Source of the DNA: Planctomycetota bacterium
Lineage (GTDB): Bacteria; Planctomycetota; UBA1135; UBA2386
DNA length: 64,000 nt
Direction: 5' to 3'
Assembly: GCA_965228735.1 (NCBI GenBank)
Contig: OZ245838.1
Location: forward strand, 6,432,001-6,496,000
The translations under genes and the position numbers were made by a program. This document shows positions 12,796 through 30,624 of this stretch, piece by piece; within the stretch, counting starts at the first letter, position 1, and each line of letters begins with the position of its first letter. The notes beneath the pieces were generated by a model that saw only the letters and a list, made by a program, of their open reading frames with translations, had not been told where the DNA came from and did no database searches.

Positions 12796-14613
12796 TTACG
12801 CGTTCGCCGTCGAATCCGCCGGCTCGACGCGGGTGTCGATCGGGCGGTCGCGGCGCGAGAGGCGCAGGGTGAAACGCGCGCCGCCGCCGTCGCGATCCTG
12901 GTAGTCGATCGTGCCGCCGTGCGCGAGGGCGACCTCCATGGCGATGCGCAGACCGATGCCGATGCCCTGCGGCTTGTCGACGAGCACGTCGCCGCCCTGG
13001 GTGAACTCCTCGAAGATGCGGCTCTGGTCGGCCTCCGGGATGCCCGGGCCGCGATCGAGGATCTCGATCGCGACATCGTCCTCGGCCGGTGTGACACGGA
13101 TCTCGACGACGCCGTCCTTCGGGCTCCATTGCCACGCGTTGTGCAACACGTGGTAGATGGCGTCGGTCACGCGCTCCCGGTCGGCGCTCAGGTGGACGGC
13201 GGCGGCCTCGAGCCGCCACTCGATCGGTTTGAGCTGCAACACTCCGGCGAGGCGCGACCGCGCGTTGCGGCAGAGCTCGACGACGTCGACGTTGCTCACC
13301 GTCCACTCCGTGCGGTCGCTCGCGAGGCTCGCATACTCGAGCGCGTCGCTGATGCGCGTGCCGAGCCGTGCGGCCTGTTCGAGGATCGTGCCGAGGAACT
13401 CGGTGCGGTCTTCCGACGAGGCGCTGTCGCCGAACTCCTGCAGCATCTCGGCGGACGTCTGGATGCCCGTGAGCGGGGTGCGTAGCTCGTGGCTGATCGA
13501 CATCAGGAAGCCGTCCTTGGCGCGGTTGGCCGCTTCCGCGCGCACTGCCTTGTCCGCGGCCTCATCGAACAGTCTCTGCATCGTCGTCGCCATCGTGTTG
13601 AACGACTCGCCGAGACGGCCGACCTCGTCCTGGCTGTCGATCTTCACGCGGGCGCCGAGGTCACCCATCGCCAGCTGCTTGTTCGCCAGCACGAGTCGCC
13701 GCAGCGGCTGGCTCAACCGCCGCGCCGTGCGCGACGCGAACCACAGGCCGAAGAGCGTGACGATCGCACCGAGCGCGAGCAGGTAGAGGATCGCTTCGTC
13801 GCGCAGTTGCACGATCGCATCGACGTCGTGCGGCAAGAACGTGATGATGCCTTCGTTCGTGAGCCGGATCGCGAGTCCGGGCCGCGATTGGCCGTCCACC
13901 TCGATGCTCGCCGTCCGCCCGGCCGGCGGCAGATCGCCGTGCCGGAGCGTCGCGAGCTCGTCGATCAGAAGATCCGTTGGGCTGTGTCTGAGCCAGACCT
14001 GACCCGCGAGCCGGCCCTCGTGCATGAGCACGAGGTCGTTGCCGATGCCGCTGCCGAGCGTGCCGGCGAACGCGTCGTCGACCGGGATGCCGCGAACGAG
14101 CACCGCGGCGACCGCGTCGTCGGCAACGATCGGCGCGAGGCCGGCAAACATCAACGTGGCGCCGTCGTGCCATAGGTGAACACTCGGGGTCCCCGTCAGC
14201 GCGGCTTCGACGCCCGGCCAGTTCGACATGTCCGCTGCGATCGCGAACGACGCGTTGCGACGGCCACGGACCTGCCCCTTGTCGTCGAGCACGACGAGCG
14301 CCTGGTCGGGTCCGCCATCACTCTGGATCGCGTCGAAGCCGTCCTCGAGCGTTGCCTGGTCGACCCCTTCGATGCTGGCGAGGGCCGTGAGCAGCGGTGT
14401 CTGCGCGAGGAAGTCGGTCTCTTCGCGCAGGTCGACGCGGAGGCGTTCGATCGCGCGGCCGAGGTTGCGGTGCCCTTCGGCGACGCTGTTGTCGACCTCG
14501 CGGGCGGCGAAGTCGTTGATGCGGCCCACGAACACGGCAGCCGCGACCGCGACGAAGCCCGCGATGAGCGTCGTCGTTCCGAGGACCAGGCGGCCGCGCA
14601 GATCGAGCTGCAT
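12796..14613 (-). CDS. Membrane sensor histidine kinase (periplasmic sensor domain, HAMP, HisKA, HATPase)
   Basis: Two TM helices flank a ~240-aa extracytoplasmic region. HAMP (DEVGRLGESFNTM), H-box SISHELRTPLT, N-box LHNAWQW, DRGPGI, GIGIGL. No receiver domain. Confidence 0.92.
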   Translation of the reverse strand: MQLDLRGRLVLGTTTLIAGFVAVAAAVFVGRINDFAAREVDNSVAEGHRNLGRAIERLRVDLREETDFLAQTPLLTALASIEGVDQATLEDGFDAIQSDGGPDQALVVLDDKGQVRGRRNASFAIAADMSNWPGVEAALTGTPSVHLWHDGATLMFAGLAPIVADDAVAAVLVRGIPVDDAFAGTLGSGIGNDLVLMHEGRLAGQVWLRHSPTDLLIDELATLRHGDLPPAGRTASIEVDGQSRPGLAIRLTNEGIITFLPHDVDAIVQLRDEAILYLLALGAIVTLFGLWFASRTARRLSQPLRRLVLANKQLAMGDLGARVKIDSQDEVGRLGESFNTMATTMQRLFDEAADKAVRAEAANRAKDGFLMSISHELRTPLTGIQTSAEMLQEFGDSASSEDRTEFLGTILEQAARLGTRISDALEYASLASDRTEWTVSNVDVVELCRNARSRLAGVLQLKPIEWRLEAAAVHLSADRERVTDAIYHVLHNAWQWSPKDGVVEIRVTPAEDDVAIEILDRGPGIPEADQSRIFEEFTQGGDVLVDKPQGIGIGLRIAMEVALAHGGTIDYQDRDGGGARFTLRLSRRDRPIDTRVEPADSTANA

Positions 14614-14614
14614 C

Positions 14615-15595
14615 TCAGTACTTCTTGCGGTAGCGCTTGCCGTGCTTGTTGGTGTGCTGCACGCGCGCTCGGGTCTCCCGGACGGTGAGCGGCACTACCT
14701 GCGCGATCCCGTCATGGACTTCGATCGTCGTCGGCGGTGGCATGCCGAGCGCATGCCAGACGCGGAGCCGATAGCGCCCGTCCGGGACGTCCGGAATGGC
14801 CCAGTAGCCGCGCTCGTCGGTCACCGTGGCGCGGTCGTTCTCGAGAACGAGCACGCTGGCCGACATCTGCGGGTGGATGTTGCAGTGCACCTTGACGAGA
14901 CCGGCCCGGTCCATCGCGACCTCCTTCGACCTGCCCTTGCCGTAGGTGCCGAGGTCGAACGCCTTGGTCTTGGACTTGCTGAAGACGTTGTGGAACACCA
15001 CGTCGTCGTTGGGGAAGCGCACGACGGTGCCGCGCGTCACCGTGAGCACGCGCGGCGCGAACTGGCGGCCCTGCTGGGAGATAACCGGCTTGCGGGCGGC
15101 GGGGGGCGACGGCGGCAGCGCGTCACCTTCGAGGAACACCACGACGCCGCCGCGATCCTCGTGGGCAGCGCCGTCGCGCGCGAGCAACTCGATGCGACCG
15201 TGCAGCGCGTTGCCCCGGTTGGGGAACAGGCCGCGGGCGGCGTTGTCGTCGCGGACCTCGAGATGACAGCTCGTGCAGGCCCGCCGCAGCAGCGCGAAGT
15301 CGTGCCGCCGCAGCGCGGCATCGGGCGCGCTCCCGAGCGCGCGAGCGCGGTCCCTCACAGCCGTGAGCCAGCGCGTCCCGCCCGGGCCGAACCGAGCCGC
15401 GCCGGCCAGCCCGCTCGCCGTGTCCACGATCTTCGCCGTCGCCGCGGGGTTCGTCGTGTCGCGGTCGAGCGCGCGCTCGAGCTCCTGCACGGCCGTCGCG
15501 AACGCCTGCATCGCCGCCGTGGTCGACGGCGCCTCCTGCGCGCTCGCGGCGCCGGCCACGCCGAGCAGCGCCATTGCGCGCGCGAACGCCCGCAT
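14615..15595 (-). CDS. Secreted fusion: class II (cytochrome c'-like) heme domain + MauL-like cupredoxin + carboxypeptidase-regulatory-like domain
   Basis: Signal peptide (ASA-Q). A helical domain ends in CTSCH. Cupredoxin motifs QFAPRVL...FPNDD..FHNVFS...CNIHPQM supply His/Cys/His/Met ligands. Tail DVPDGRYRLRVWH. Confidence 0.8.
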   Translation of the reverse strand: MRAFARAMALLGVAGAASAQEAPSTTAAMQAFATAVQELERALDRDTTNPAATAKIVDTASGLAGAARFGPGGTRWLTAVRDRARALGSAPDAALRRHDFALLRRACTSCHLEVRDDNAARGLFPNRGNALHGRIELLARDGAAHEDRGGVVVFLEGDALPPSPPAARKPVISQQGRQFAPRVLTVTRGTVVRFPNDDVVFHNVFSKSKTKAFDLGTYGKGRSKEVAMDRAGLVKVHCNIHPQMSASVLVLENDRATVTDERGYWAIPDVPDGRYRLRVWHALGMPPPTTIEVHDGIAQVVPLTVRETRARVQHTNKHGKRYRKKY

Positions 15596-15597
15596 CG

Positions 15598-16860
15598 TCA
15601 GAACGCCAGGACCAGTTCGGCGGCAACGAACTTCCGCGTGTCGTCCGCGAGGCCGCTGAGGTCGGTCGCGCGCGCGTGGTCGAAGCCGACCTCGAACTTG
15701 CCGAGCAGGCCGGGCGCGAACGTCCGGACGACGCCCGCGGATACGCGTTCGGCCTGCATGAGATCGAACCCGTAGCTCGCCATGCCGTTGAAGTAGGGCT
15801 GGCCCTCGAACTGGTAGCCCTCCTGCGAATCGAACGTGCTCACGCCGCTGTAGCGCAGCGCCACCGTCCAGTCCTCGTTGAGCACGACGGACGGCTCGAC
15901 GATCCAGAACCCGAACTCGCGGTCGAACTGGTCACCGATGTCGTTGATCTGGCAGCCGCCGAGCTGCCACTGCAGCTGGAAGCTCTCCGATGGTTGCCAG
16001 ATGCCGTCGAACGCGCCGACGAGCGCATCGATGTCGGTGCTCGGGCTGGCGCCGCCCGCGCCGCCGCCGACCGGCGTCAGCACATTGCCGCCGAAGCACA
16101 GGGCCGTCGCCGGAGTGTTCTGCACCCAGTGGCAGCTCGCGCTGAGGTACAGCGACTCGCAGGGCTCGGCCCAGAGCTTGCCGGTCAGCGCCGGTGAGAT
16201 GCCCGTGCTCGACTGCCGGTCGTAGGTGCCTTCGGTGAACGAGAACACCCAGCCGCAGTCCCCGAGGTCCTCGAAGAGCTGGATGCCTTCGTCCCAACGA
16301 TAGGTCGTGGGCAACGGGATGCTGACGAGCCGGTTCCGCGGCGCGTCCTCGAGGAAGTAGTACTCCCCGAACGGCAGGTTGAAGCGTCCGGCCTTGAGGC
16401 CGACAGCGCCGTCGCCGTTCTCGTCGCCGAAGCCGAACGGATCGTGGAGCTGCAGATAGACCTCGTTCACGCCGACGCCGTTGGCGTCGTTGTCACGGAA
16501 CCAGTCCCACTCGACCTCGACGACGACCGTGCCGGTGTCGCGCAGTTCGGCCTGGAAGAACATCAGCGCCTGCTGCACACCGAGCGCACCATCGGGGTAG
16601 TTGCCGGTGTCGTCCGTCTGCATGTAGCGCGACGCGAGGAAGCCGTAGACCTCGAAGCGCTCGAACCAGCGGTCGAGGCCCTGCTGGACCTGACCCGCGG
16701 CTTCGCCCATGTCCGCGAACGACTCGTCGGAGAGGTCGATGCCGCCGTCGGTCGGCGGGTCCTGCGCCAGCGCCGGCGCGGCGAGAAGCAGGACGGGAAC
16801 GAGCGCTCGCAGCGCACCGAAGCGGCTCGCGCATCCGCGGAAGGGAGTAGGGGGAACCAT
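15598..16860 (-). CDS. Putative outer-membrane beta-barrel (porin-like) protein
   Basis: Signal peptide (ALA-Q), amphipathic beta-strand pattern, LKAGRFNLPFG loop motif, C-terminal ELVLAF ending in Phe. Confidence 0.75.
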   Translation of the reverse strand: MVPPTPFRGCASRFGALRALVPVLLLAAPALAQDPPTDGGIDLSDESFADMGEAAGQVQQGLDRWFERFEVYGFLASRYMQTDDTGNYPDGALGVQQALMFFQAELRDTGTVVVEVEWDWFRDNDANGVGVNEVYLQLHDPFGFGDENGDGAVGLKAGRFNLPFGEYYFLEDAPRNRLVSIPLPTTYRWDEGIQLFEDLGDCGWVFSFTEGTYDRQSSTGISPALTGKLWAEPCESLYLSASCHWVQNTPATALCFGGNVLTPVGGGAGGASPSTDIDALVGAFDGIWQPSESFQLQWQLGGCQINDIGDQFDREFGFWIVEPSVVLNEDWTVALRYSGVSTFDSQEGYQFEGQPYFNGMASYGFDLMQAERVSAGVVRTFAPGLLGKFEVGFDHARATDLSGLADDTRKFVAAELVLAF

Positions 16861-16992: not shown

Positions 16993-18072
16993 CTAGCCGC
17001 CGTAGTAGCGACCGAAGCGGTTCTTGAGGAACGCCTCGTAGTCGACGCTCTCCATCCGCAGGAAGCCGCTCTCCGGCAGCTTGCCGTCGCGCAGCAGGTC
17101 GACGATGCCCGTGACGCCGGCCGCGGTCGTGATCTGGATGCCGCTCCAGTTCTCGCCGTCGATCTCCTGGTGGTAGATCGTCTTGGCGTAGGTCCGTTCG
17201 GTGAGCCGCCCCTTGTACTGCCCGGTCGCGCTCACGTAGATCACGATCTGATCCTGGAACGTGGCCGGCAGCGCGCGCTCGAAGATCGCGCGCAGTTCGT
17301 CCTGGTGGTCCTGCATCTGCAGGTCGAGCAGCAGCAGCTTGAGCAGCTCGCAGTGGCCGGGGTAGCGGATCGTCTTGTAGTTGACGTTCTTCACCCGGTC
17401 CTTGAGCGTGATCGCGAGCGTGCCGAGGCCGCCCGACGTGTTGAACGCCTCGTACTCGACGCCGTCGATCGTCAGCCTTTCGAGCTGCTCGAGCGGTGGC
17501 ACGGTCGTCAGCTCACCGTTCTCGACGGATTCGCACGGATTGCAGTACTCGTTGATCAACCCCTCCGTGCTCCACGTGAGGTTGTACTTCAGGCGGTTGC
17601 TCGGGAACCGCGGCAGCGCACCGACGCGCAGGTTGAGGTCCGTGACCTCGGTCATCGACTTCATCAGGTGGTTGGCCACGATCGTGATGAAGCCCGGCGC
17701 GAGGCCGCACTGCGGGGCGAACAGCGTGTTGGCGCCGTCGGCGAGGTCCTTGACCTGCTGCGTGACCGCGACGTCTTCCGTGAGGTCGAAGTAGTGGACA
17801 CCGTTTTCTTTCGCGCGCTGCGCGATCAGCGGGTTGCAGTGGTACGGCGCGCAGCTGATCACGGCCCAGGCGCCGTCGAGGATCGCGTCGAGGCTCTCGG
17901 CACTCTCGAAGTCGACCACCTGACCCGTGACGTTGTCGTACTTGTCGTTGAGGAACGACACGGCCGGCTCGGCCACGTCGCCGACGCGGACGCGGTAGTC
18001 GCCCGACTTGGCCATGAGGTGACAGACCATGCGGCCGATCTTGCCGGCGCCGAGGATGACGAGTTCGTGCAT
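16993..18072 (-). CDS. Saccharopine dehydrogenase / lysine 6-dehydrogenase family oxidoreductase
   Basis: Rossmann LGAGKIG, YFDLTEDV, PQCGLAPGF, LKYNLTWSTEGLINEY, YEAFNTSGGLGT, YKTIRYPGH. Confidence 0.88.
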   Translation of the reverse strand: MHELVILGAGKIGRMVCHLMAKSGDYRVRVGDVAEPAVSFLNDKYDNVTGQVVDFESAESLDAILDGAWAVISCAPYHCNPLIAQRAKENGVHYFDLTEDVAVTQQVKDLADGANTLFAPQCGLAPGFITIVANHLMKSMTEVTDLNLRVGALPRFPSNRLKYNLTWSTEGLINEYCNPCESVENGELTTVPPLEQLERLTIDGVEYEAFNTSGGLGTLAITLKDRVKNVNYKTIRYPGHCELLKLLLLDLQMQDHQDELRAIFERALPATFQDQIVIYVSATGQYKGRLTERTYAKTIYHQEIDGENWSGIQITTAAGVTGIVDLLRDGKLPESGFLRMESVDYEAFLKNRFGRYYGG

Positions 18073-28977: not shown

Positions 28978-30624
28978 CTACGGGATGACGAGGCGCATCG
29001 CGTCCGACGAGATCACCAGGTTGGCGGCCGTCGGATCGAGGGCGACCCACTGGATCCAGTACGTGCCCGGGGCGGCTTGTGACGGCGGCACATGAAAGAT
29101 GTGACTGTTGTATCCGCTGCCGTCGGGCGAAGTCTTCGTCGCGCCCAGCGGCAACGCGAGCAACGCGGGGCTGACGCCGAGGTGGACCTGCATCCCGAGG
29201 TAGAGGCTCGGCGCCGGCGACCCGACGAGGTCGACCATCAGTGCCGTGAACAGGCCCGGCGCGATCCGGTCGACGCCGACGCCGAACGTGTCGTTGCCGT
29301 GATACACGGTGCCGAGCGCCGAGATCCTCGGAGGGCGCGGGGTGTGCGGTGCCGTGCCGACGCCGAACGCCGTCGGCACGCGGACACTCTCGATCCAGAG
29401 TCGGGGGCGGTCGAACGGCGGCAGCTCGCTGGCCACGCGCGGGTCGGTCAGGCTGTGAAGCAGCGCCAGCAGCGCCGCGCGGCGGCGCGGGGTCAGCTGG
29501 CCGCGGATCGCGTCGACGAGGGGGTCCCGGTTGTCGGCGTGATCGCCACCCCGATCGTAGAACGCGAGCACGTCCGCCAGGGAGCTGCCGCTGCCGTCAT
29601 GGAACCACGTGCTGCGCAGCGCCACGTTCCGCAGGTCCGGCACCCGGAACTTGCCGCGATCCGCTGTGGCGCCCGTCACCTGCGCGCGCCCGAGATCCGT
29701 AGCCGGTGGTCGCACGCCGGTGTTGCGGAAGTCCTCGTGCACGGGGCCCGTAGCGAGAACCGCCGCGCTCAGGCCCGTGTGGCAATCGGCGCAGAACCGC
29801 TCGAAGACGGTCAGGCCGTGGCGCGCGAGCGGCGAAAGCGTGCCCTGTCCGGCGAGGTAGCGATCGAACGGCGATCCGTCGCTCACGAGCGTGCGTTGAT
29901 ACGCGGCGAGCGCGAACGCGATCCGGGTCGGCGTGATCTCGGGTGTGCCGAACGCGCGGGCGAACAATGCCGGGTACCGTCGGCCGCCGATCCAGCTCTG
30001 CATCGCGGGCGGCACGCGTTCCGCGACCGCGAGGGGGACGAGGCGCTCGATCAGCGTGGTGACGTCGCGCCAGTCGCGATCGACGTGCGCCATCTCCGCC
30101 GTGCTGAGCAGCGGCTCGAGGGCTTGATGTTCGAGAGCCGCATTCGCGGTCAGCACGATGTCGCCCGTCCTCGGGTCGCGGAACACACCGTCGGCGCGCC
30201 CGTCGACGAAGACAGACGGTTGGTAGGCGGAGTTCACGAGCGGTGGCGCGCGACGGTGCGAGACCTGCCACTGCACGCCGAACGTGGCGTTCGCGATCAT
30301 CAAGCCGCTGCTGTCATGCAGCGGGACGCCGGGTGAGCCGCGGCCGTCGTCGGCCGTCCCGAATACACCGTCGGCCCCCGGATGCACGCTGCTCGGTGCC
30401 CGAGGATCCGTGCCGTCCCGGCCCGGCACGTGGCACGTGCCGCACGCGATCGCGTTCGAGGACGCGAGCTGTTCGTCGTAGAACAGCGCCTTGCCGAGCA
30501 GGACCTTGTCGGGCGTGGTGGGGTTTCCCGCGGGCGTCGGCGGAGTCGGCCAGATCGACTGGGCTCGCACAGCGGCGAGCGCGACCAGGAGCACTGCCAG
30601 GAATACGTATGCGAACTGACGCAT
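28978..30624 (-). CDS. Diheme cytochrome c peroxidase / MauG superfamily protein with extra C-terminal domain
   Basis: Signal peptide; LGKALFYD, CGTCH, SPFDRYL, CADCH, GKFRVPDLRNV, FHDGS, VLAFYDRGG. Confidence 0.88.
   Translation of the reverse strand: MRQFAYVFLAVLLVALAAVRAQSIWPTPPTPAGNPTTPDKVLLGKALFYDEQLASSNAIACGTCHVPGRDGTDPRAPSSVHPGADGVFGTADDGRGSPGVPLHDSSGLMIANATFGVQWQVSHRRAPPLVNSAYQPSVFVDGRADGVFRDPRTGDIVLTANAALEHQALEPLLSTAEMAHVDRDWRDVTTLIERLVPLAVAERVPPAMQSWIGGRRYPALFARAFGTPEITPTRIAFALAAYQRTLVSDGSPFDRYLAGQGTLSPLARHGLTVFERFCADCHTGLSAAVLATGPVHEDFRNTGVRPPATDLGRAQVTGATADRGKFRVPDLRNVALRSTWFHDGSGSSLADVLAFYDRGGDHADNRDPLVDAIRGQLTPRRRAALLALLHSLTDPRVASELPPFDRPRLWIESVRVPTAFGVGTAPHTPRPPRISALGTVYHGNDTFGVGVDRIAPGLFTALMVDLVGSPAPSLYLGMQVHLGVSPALLALPLGATKTSPDGSGYNSHIFHVPPSQAAPGTYWIQWVALDPTAANLVISSDAMRLVIP

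Follow-up and report, generated by a model that had tools for sequence, protein, structure and literature searches.

A conserved gene triad for a predicted porin, a haem/copper protein and a histidine kinase in Planctomycetota, a haem-fused variant of a wider cupredoxin-sensor module

Introduction

In several bacterial signalling systems a periplasmic accessory protein controls a membrane histidine kinase, as is the case for LuxP with LuxQ and for TorT and apo-TorC with TorS. LuxQ carries a double Cache-type domain, and TorC, a c-type cytochrome, makes contact with its kinase. Here we analyse a 64,000-nucleotide stretch of DNA from a Planctomycetota bacterium (GenBank assembly GCA_965228735.1, contig OZ245838.1, positions 6,432,001 to 6,496,000 of the forward strand; hereafter "the window"), and describe a group of three genes, the triad, that encodes a predicted outer-membrane porin (P0001), a secreted fusion of a class II cytochrome c with a cupredoxin (P0002) and a sensor histidine kinase (P0003). 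By analogy, the triad is proposed to work like LuxP-LuxQ or TorC-TorS while being a member of neither: in its predicted role, the accessory protein is a cupredoxin with a haem domain rather than a periplasmic binding protein, a porin is linked to the triad, and its sensor family is used with seven types of output.

An outer-membrane barrel, a c-type haem and a small redox carrier are also encoded together in the Cyc2/rusticyanin and MtrAB/PioABC conduits. In contrast to these, the triad has a single haem motif and a 16-stranded porin whose sequence contains no CxxCH, and its putative operon ends in a signal receptor rather than a respiratory complex. An Mtr/Cyc2-type conduit was ruled out on the grounds of the single haem and the narrow barrel, which matches MtrB with a Z-score of 11.9 compared with 26.9 for OprP.

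Two further operons resemble the triad in gene content. In the passages of PMC3707914 that describe it, the CorSR/curA system of Myxococcus xanthus places a cupredoxin-domain protein, a cytochrome and a HAMP histidine kinase in one envelope operon, together with a cognate sigma-54 regulator, a multicopper oxidase and a copper ATPase. When the two were compared by description, none of these last three was recognised at the triad, and Table 1 of PMC3707914 names no barrel for curA. The second operon is found in Burkholderiaceae RefSeq records (Burkholderia THE68 and Caballeronia SBC1), and is known from annotation alone: it combines a DUF3034 protein, a group 1 truncated haemoglobin, a "methylamine utilization protein" and an EAL/cache protein. 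The gene order is like that of the triad (barrel candidate, haem protein, cupredoxin, receptor), and both the cupredoxin (133-150 bits) and the sensor (E-value 5e-26) match profiles built from the triad families. The sequence-only reading of the window that preceded this analysis had pointed to MauL-like cupredoxins in operons with barrel proteins, a haem protein and a signalling enzyme, and these records agree with it. They differ from the triad in three ways, however: DUF3034 does not match the P0001 barrel profile, the haem is carried by a globin encoded on its own instead of by a class II cytochrome c fused to the cupredoxin, and the output is GGDEF-EAL rather than a histidine kinase. While the cupredoxin of P0002 is likewise homologous to proteins annotated "methylamine utilization protein", a role in methylamine metabolism was ruled out by the lack of mau context, the neighbours being a saccharopine dehydrogenase and a nucleoside symporter (methylamine dehydrogenase was not searched genome-wide).

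No study of a cupredoxin-sensor module turned up in the literature searched, which consisted mostly of openly accessible papers, and in that same literature no blue-copper protein was found to serve as a receptor co-sensor.

Results

The triad is conserved as a unit

The three genes of the triad lie on the minus strand in the order barrel (P0001, 15598..16860, an open reading frame (ORF) of 420 amino acids), haem c/copper fusion (P0002, 14615..15595, 326 amino acids) and orphan sensor histidine kinase (P0003, 12796..14613, 605 amino acids). All three ORFs are intact, with gaps of 2 bp between barrel and fusion and 1 bp between fusion and kinase. The sequence-only reading had described three such closely spaced minus-strand genes for a Phe-terminated beta-barrel-like protein, a secreted haem c/copper protein and a two-transmembrane kinase with a periplasmic sensor domain, without a response regulator in the window; as set out below, the ORF coordinates, the barrel model, the invariant haem and copper ligands, the domain matches of the kinase and a genome-wide receiver search each support this description.

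A gene-neighbourhood comparison, which the same reading had proposed as its check on conservation, likewise came out in favour of the triad. Across GTDB, 440 stretches encode a relative, and the GTDB counts given here refer to the best 80 of them. Among these, 20 loci carry the haem-fused form, with a barrel of the P0001 family upstream in 20/20 and a receptor downstream in 19/20; the remaining locus is cut by a contig end. The spacing is tight, ranging from -26 to 29 bp between barrel and fusion over the 20 loci and not exceeding 8 bp between fusion and receptor in 18 of 19. When the genome of the window and 40 relatives were searched, 22 of the 41 contained a match to the fusion protein. The long fused form was present in five genomes besides the window's, in each case with the order of barrel and kinase unchanged and with other flanking genes, while neither of the two same-genus genomes (88 and 90% complete) had a match to the fusion protein. 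Because the 41-genome and GTDB sets share sequences, their counts are not added. The 7.19 Mb genome has a single copy of each triad gene, and the nearest named homologs are from Planctomycetota. An ORF artefact of high-GC DNA was ruled out, since the genes are intact and conserved. Taken together, these data indicate that the triad is a genuine envelope signalling unit, conserved and apparently undescribed. It is the mostly planctomycete variant, with haem c fused, of a widespread cupredoxin-dCache_3 module.

Two rearranged loci were also seen. At L214:1938-6192 (G147), the kinase gene comes first, before barrel and fusion, and is broken into two ORFs inside the part that encodes the sensor. 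At L026:8714-9394 (G019), a 226-amino-acid ORF directly upstream of the kinase joins the N-terminal part of the barrel to the C-terminal half of the cupredoxin protein, which reflects either an internal deletion or a misassembly.

Cupredoxin and sensor form the constant core of a wider module

With fused and unfused loci taken together, a homolog of the P0003 sensor was found within 4.5 kb of the cupredoxin in 73/80 GTDB loci from several phyla, 58 of these 73 having been used to train the sensor profile. Of the seven loci without a match, four are no more than 900 bp away from where their contig stops. Among metagenome loci that extend 2.5 kb or more downstream, the sensor was present in 25 of 28, a set that includes two training loci and a few duplicates of GTDB loci, and in a control set of more distant cupredoxin-transthyretin paralogs it was found in 0/12. 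The search was also run in reverse, in 251 genomes of the phylum with at most 10 candidates scored per genome. This recovered the sensor in 10 genomes, 8 of them outside the training set, and a cupredoxin adjoined it in four of these eight, including the three with the best scores.

The output joined to the sensor is variable. The 35 scanned proteins comprise 12 HisKA kinases, 4 hybrids, one HisKA_3/PAS kinase, 7 SpoIIE phosphatases, 5 Ser/Thr kinases (one without the sensor), 3 HD-type proteins, one chemoreceptor, one class III cyclase and one protein of no family; with the GGDEF-EAL output found in Burkholderia, this makes seven kinds (histidine kinase, SpoIIE phosphatase, Ser/Thr kinase, HD-type hydrolase, chemoreceptor, class III cyclase and GGDEF-EAL). 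The same is true of the other partners. A member of one of six neighbour clusters counted as barrels lies nearby in 67/80 loci, by profiles built from the same neighbours and with two small clusters only presumed to be barrels, and the barrel families differ by lineage. The haem partner is a fused monohaem domain in 20 of the 80 loci, a separate protein with 4-5 CxxCH motifs in 16 and a globin in one (L195), with none detected in 43. Other globin partners occur in the Burkholderiaceae records and in P0120, and a Comamonas record has the cupredoxin and an EAL protein alone. P0120 is a bacterial globin naturally fused to the same cupredoxin scaffold, paralleling the cytochrome fusion of P0002. 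Trees of cupredoxin and sensor are correlated (Mantel r 0.84, 0/999 permutations), and the fused loci cluster together in both when midpoint-rooted. We conclude that cupredoxin and sensor are the constant unit, and that barrels and haem partners are swapped.

Several further forms of the module were noted. One version, from myxobacteria, consists of a barrel, the cupredoxin, a cytochrome with 4-5 CxxCH motifs and a receptor, and a small conserved gene that matches no Pfam family often comes next; the barrels that were scanned are BBP2-like, and the scanned receptors are SpoIIE phosphatases. This version is seen at L140-L144, L146, L154, L157, L158, L165, L166, L170, L180, L182, L183 and L197, and is carried by cultured Polyangium and Chondromyces strains. 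At L048:381-3819, the genes for a 244-amino-acid Phe-ending protein and the cupredoxin are followed by one for a receptor whose layout is inverted: its Ser/Thr kinase is N-terminal and its apparent periplasmic region C-terminal. The sensor profile missed this receptor. The record of L148 is titled Bifidobacterium, yet the locus resembles the acidobacterial L149 in neighbour clusters and spacing, so a binning error is probable.

P0002 combines a class II cytochrome c with a cupredoxin

P0002 has a signal-peptide-like N-terminus by inspection, a mature net charge of +14 and a model of high confidence (predicted local distance difference test score (pLDDT) 92.4) in three parts: a four-helix haem domain, a cupredoxin and a transthyretin-like sandwich. 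The first part was assigned as a class II cytochrome c domain by profile and fold matches (amino acids 20-122; 15230..15538, minus strand). Its four helices span residues 25-114 and end in the haem motif C107-x-x-C110-H111 (CTSCH, 15263-15277, minus strand), and a gene for haem c assembly is present in the genome (PF01578 above cut-off). A profile of the domain matched cytochrome cb562 (E 6.9e-5, residues 2-106) with M29 aligned on Met7, the axial haem ligand of cytochrome b562. The best fold match was NaxL (6r6n; Z 10.8, root-mean-square deviation (rmsd) 1.6 over 101 residues), a Z-score that helical bundles can also reach through their common arrangement; cytochromes c' followed at Z 7.5-8.0. 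A single-sequence search of the PDB with the haem domain gave nothing relevant, and Pfam Cytochrome C' (PF01322) matched 4/46 fused members weakly. From the aligned ranges (22-125 of P0002 and 25-135 of NaxL), M29 would fall on NaxL residue 32, barring an early gap, and residue 32 is one of the two cysteines mutated in entry 6r6n.

The four-helix bundle, C-terminal CxxCH and N-terminal-helix residue at the distal position are common to P0002 and class II cytochromes c such as engineered cb562, NaxL and cytochrome c'. The distal residue is Cys in NaxL and a non-ligand in cytochrome c'. In P0002, by contrast, it is Met, and the haem domain is fused to a cupredoxin. M29 is kept in 46/46 fused homologs and in 20/20 fused GTDB loci, which suggests that M29 is the likely distal ligand of a His/Met six-coordinate haem. 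NaxLS has been described as a complex of two small cytochromes c (PMC8388095) and as an electron/NO shuttle (10.64898/2026.02.25.707902).

Such similarities raise the question of whether the triad senses NO or O2, with the gas displacing the Met or binding an open haem site and the change passing through the cupredoxin scaffold to the Cache domain. The likeness to NaxL and cytochromes c', the weak Cytochrome C' matches and the replacement of the haem domain by globins in other lineages all speak for this, but an invariant Met aligned with Met7 of cb562 argues for a six-coordinate haem that transfers electrons, gases have no need of a porin, and the multihaem partners and haem-free versions fit poorly. 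We consider gas sensing rather unlikely.

The cupredoxin domain (about amino acids 163-252; 14840..15109, minus strand) was identified by profile, fold and ligand conservation, with a Foldseek match to amicyanin (E 1.3e-7) and one to VIA at Z 12.5 (rmsd 1.9 over 82 residues). Its ligand set H202, C238, H241 and M244, in the pattern His...Cys-x2-His-x2-Met, is predicted to form a type 1 (blue) copper site. Together with CxxCH this set is invariant in 46/46 fused homologs, and the copper set is kept in 61/61 loci when haem-free ones are included. The domain is inserted in a transthyretin-like (carboxypeptidase-regulatory) sandwich (about amino acids 129-160 and 254-309, Z 8.1), which is followed by a basic C-terminal tail recognised as a conserved pattern in the alignment (H-x-x-K-x-G-x-x-Y-x-x-x-Y; 14618..14668, minus strand) and without counterpart in some lineages of the wider cupredoxin family. 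The ESM Atlas returned just a "hypothetical protein" cluster (score 0.94; commonest taxon Planctomycetota), and no longer fusion of the cupredoxin part was found among 1918 candidates, which is weak evidence.

As the copper ligands are the only metal site common to all variants, the triad might instead report copper availability, in which case the porin, strongly acidic at a net charge of -39, would admit copper, and the apo or holo form of the cupredoxin, not its redox state, would control the kinase. The failure to detect a haem partner in about half of the loci is in keeping with this. Against it, the scan of some flanking ORFs recognised no copper ATPase, multicopper oxidase or efflux gene beside the triad or in six relatives, a buried type 1 site exchanges copper slowly, and the repeated recruitment of haem proteins is left unexplained. 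Copper sensing thus appears unlikely, if with some points in its favour.

P0001 is a predicted acidic porin

P0001 begins with a hydrophobic signal peptide, ends in Phe and had no match in Pfam or NCBIfam at E<=0.1. A model built from a 17-sequence alignment (pLDDT 82.6) has its first 48 residues disordered and contains a helix at 51-65 and 16 long strands, and best matches OprP (Z 26.9, rmsd 3.1 over 308 residues), followed by DcaP (Z 24.9) and PorB (Z 24.2). From this model we predict that P0001 is an outer-membrane porin with a 16-stranded barrel. The mature protein is strongly acidic (net charge -39; -10 to -47 across 31 relatives), which argues, at the level of sequence, against an OprP-type arginine ladder or anion selectivity. 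The charge and the lack of a Pfam family match ruled out an OprP/OprO phosphate porin. The periplasmic N-terminal segment is also acidic, with a conserved VDLS motif and the helix.

A profile search with P0001 yielded 379 representatives at E<=0.001. Among the 150 matches listed is P0202, a 697-amino-acid predicted lipoprotein in which a cupredoxin-transthyretin scaffold is joined to a P0001-family barrel by a Pro-rich linker and coiled coil; the scaffold is degenerate (residues 78-231, E 2.5e-12) and the copper Cys is missing. P0243 and P0185, which join a barrel end to a cytochrome, are apparent read-throughs of two neighbouring genes and were not scored as fusions.

Charge complementarity, the P0202 fusion and the conserved segments that bind no metal (VDLS and the basic tail) would all be expected of an envelope-integrity sensor of the RcsF/NlpE type, in which the barrel keeps the basic periplasmic protein away from the kinase until failed assembly or membrane damage frees it. 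Since such a sensor would leave two invariant redox centres unexplained, and the barrels are non-homologous or absent among variants, we regard it as very improbable.

P0003 is an orphan kinase with a dCache_3-like sensor

P0003 has transmembrane segments at residues 9-27 and 274-292, with the periplasmic sensor between them and HAMP after the second. HAMP, HisKA (H375) and HATPase_c all score above Pfam cut-offs; the N, G1, F and G2 boxes are intact, and the N box reads HNAWQWS in the near clade. The sensor domain (amino acids 31-273; 13795..14523, minus strand; net charge -20) has no Pfam match of its own, dCache_3 included, and was classed as dCache_3-like by homology to receptors of related loci: dCache_3 is matched by 8/35 scanned downstream candidates of these. 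The family profile also matches PctA weakly (E 0.04), and within the genome it matches P0003 as its one gene, so that the periplasmic part has no paralog. Conservation is confined to P73-x-L75-x-A77...D85-x-x-T88 and some glycines. Because the sensor has no Cys and just two near-invariant residues, there is no evident sign of a conserved pocket for a small ligand.

Direct binding of small ligands is usual for Cache domains. It is therefore conceivable that the kinase reads a small molecule alone, and that the porin and haem/copper protein are an uptake or detoxification pair that shares its operon, as the weak sensor homologs without a cupredoxin in four of eight genomes would allow. The sensor, however, lacks visible conserved pocket residues, and the same cupredoxin-sensor pair is retained where the output is a chemoreceptor, a cyclase or a c-di-GMP enzyme, none of which usually regulates its own operon. 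Independent sensing is therefore improbable in our view.

A paired two-component system has a cognate regulator beside the kinase, whereas here all 60 Response_reg matches of the genome fall outside the window, and about 260 kb and 350 kb separate the triad from the nearest ones. The orphan state of the kinase is typical for fused loci. In 12 of the 15 with at least 3.7 kb after the kinase, a receiver domain is absent; in the other three a NarL-type regulator, a sigma-54 activator or a hybrid kinase follows.

Genomic setting

The saccharopine dehydrogenase gene (16993-18072, minus strand) ends 132 bp upstream of the triad, and the nucleoside symporter gene starts 43 bp downstream. Saccharopine dehydrogenase is likewise found just upstream of the triad in L022, L039 and L041, which may reflect an old insertion site or a shared promoter region. 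A scan for promoters and terminators was uninformative, with no sigma-70-like sites and 5 terminator-like sites against 2.8 +/- 2.2 in shuffles, none of them between the three genes. Six sequencing runs from four studies contain this DNA, and no RNA run was listed among them. A di-haem cytochrome c peroxidase/MauG-family gene lies at 29001-30624 (minus strand), 12 kb from the triad.

Discussion

The reading we favour, tentatively and with nearly even credence, is that the secreted haem/copper protein serves the kinase as a redox co-sensor in the periplasm, docking on its Cache domain and taking the haem as its electron input. A small oxidant, reductant or cationic redox species would pass in by way of the acidic porin, at whose periplasmic mouth the basic fusion protein may also be kept. 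The His/Met haem would swap an electron with the incoming species and equilibrate with the type 1 copper, and the oxidation state of the copper domain would then alter docking on the membrane-distal end of the dCache_3-like domain, so that the HAMP-linked kinase would phosphorylate a response regulator encoded elsewhere. The cupredoxin-sensor pair would be the core of such a system, and the porin and haem domain exchangeable input adaptors.

Several lines of evidence point this way. The cupredoxin suggests itself as the co-receptor of the sensor because it is retained as outputs, barrels and haem carriers vary, and since the sensor is constant while the output varies, an input component fits better than a regulated output. 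Oxidation state is the candidate read-out because three unrelated haem carriers have been recruited and the haem of P0002 looks six-coordinate; electron transfer would be the property common to the three. That the porin delivers the stimulus or tethers its basic partner is the weakest step, for which complementary charges (-39 for the barrel, +14 for the fusion, -20 for the sensor) and the P0202 fusion offer some support.

A number of observations weigh against redox co-sensing. With a haem partner undetected in 43/80 loci and a barrel in 13/80, and with Comamonas having a cupredoxin and an EAL protein alone, the haem and porin steps are not universal. The count of 73/80 for the sensor is partly circular, as 58 of these loci trained the profile, and four weaker sensor matches of the reverse search had no cupredoxin nearby. 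The tree correlation, for which there is no housekeeping control, may be due to shared descent. P0202 is a single predicted protein without the copper Cys. Finally, gas sensing fits the same data, since NaxL is the closest haem fold and globins bind gases.

The sequence-only reading had envisaged a relay from outer membrane to periplasm to inner membrane. The relay is plausible with the last two genes as its invariant core, in line with the constancy of cupredoxin and sensor. A strict chain from outer membrane to kinase is not required for the module, because barrel families vary, and barrels and haem partners go undetected in 13 and 43 of the 80 loci, respectively.

More broadly, the module could be a general bacterial sense for extracytoplasmic redox potential, in which the porin admits or presents redox species, an exchangeable haem module, in the triad a natural cb562-like domain fused to the carrier, tunes the donors, and type 1 copper reports its oxidation state directly to a dedicated family of dCache_3 receptors with seven outputs. 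This wider proposal we hold to be doubtful. If true, it would describe a porin-cytochrome-cupredoxin chain that ends in a signal receptor and not in a respiratory enzyme.

As haem and copper lie in one chain, two soluble proteins would be enough to test electron path and docking, and cultured Polyangium, Chondromyces and Caballeronia strains carry the module and are open to genetics. If redox co-sensing is correct, it would give a function to a large unstudied cupredoxin family whose members frequently bear the label "methylamine utilization protein". It would also provide an input for a dCache_3 receptor subfamily found in Planctomycetota, Myxococcota, Acidobacteriota, Bacteroidota, Gemmatimonadota and Pseudomonadota.

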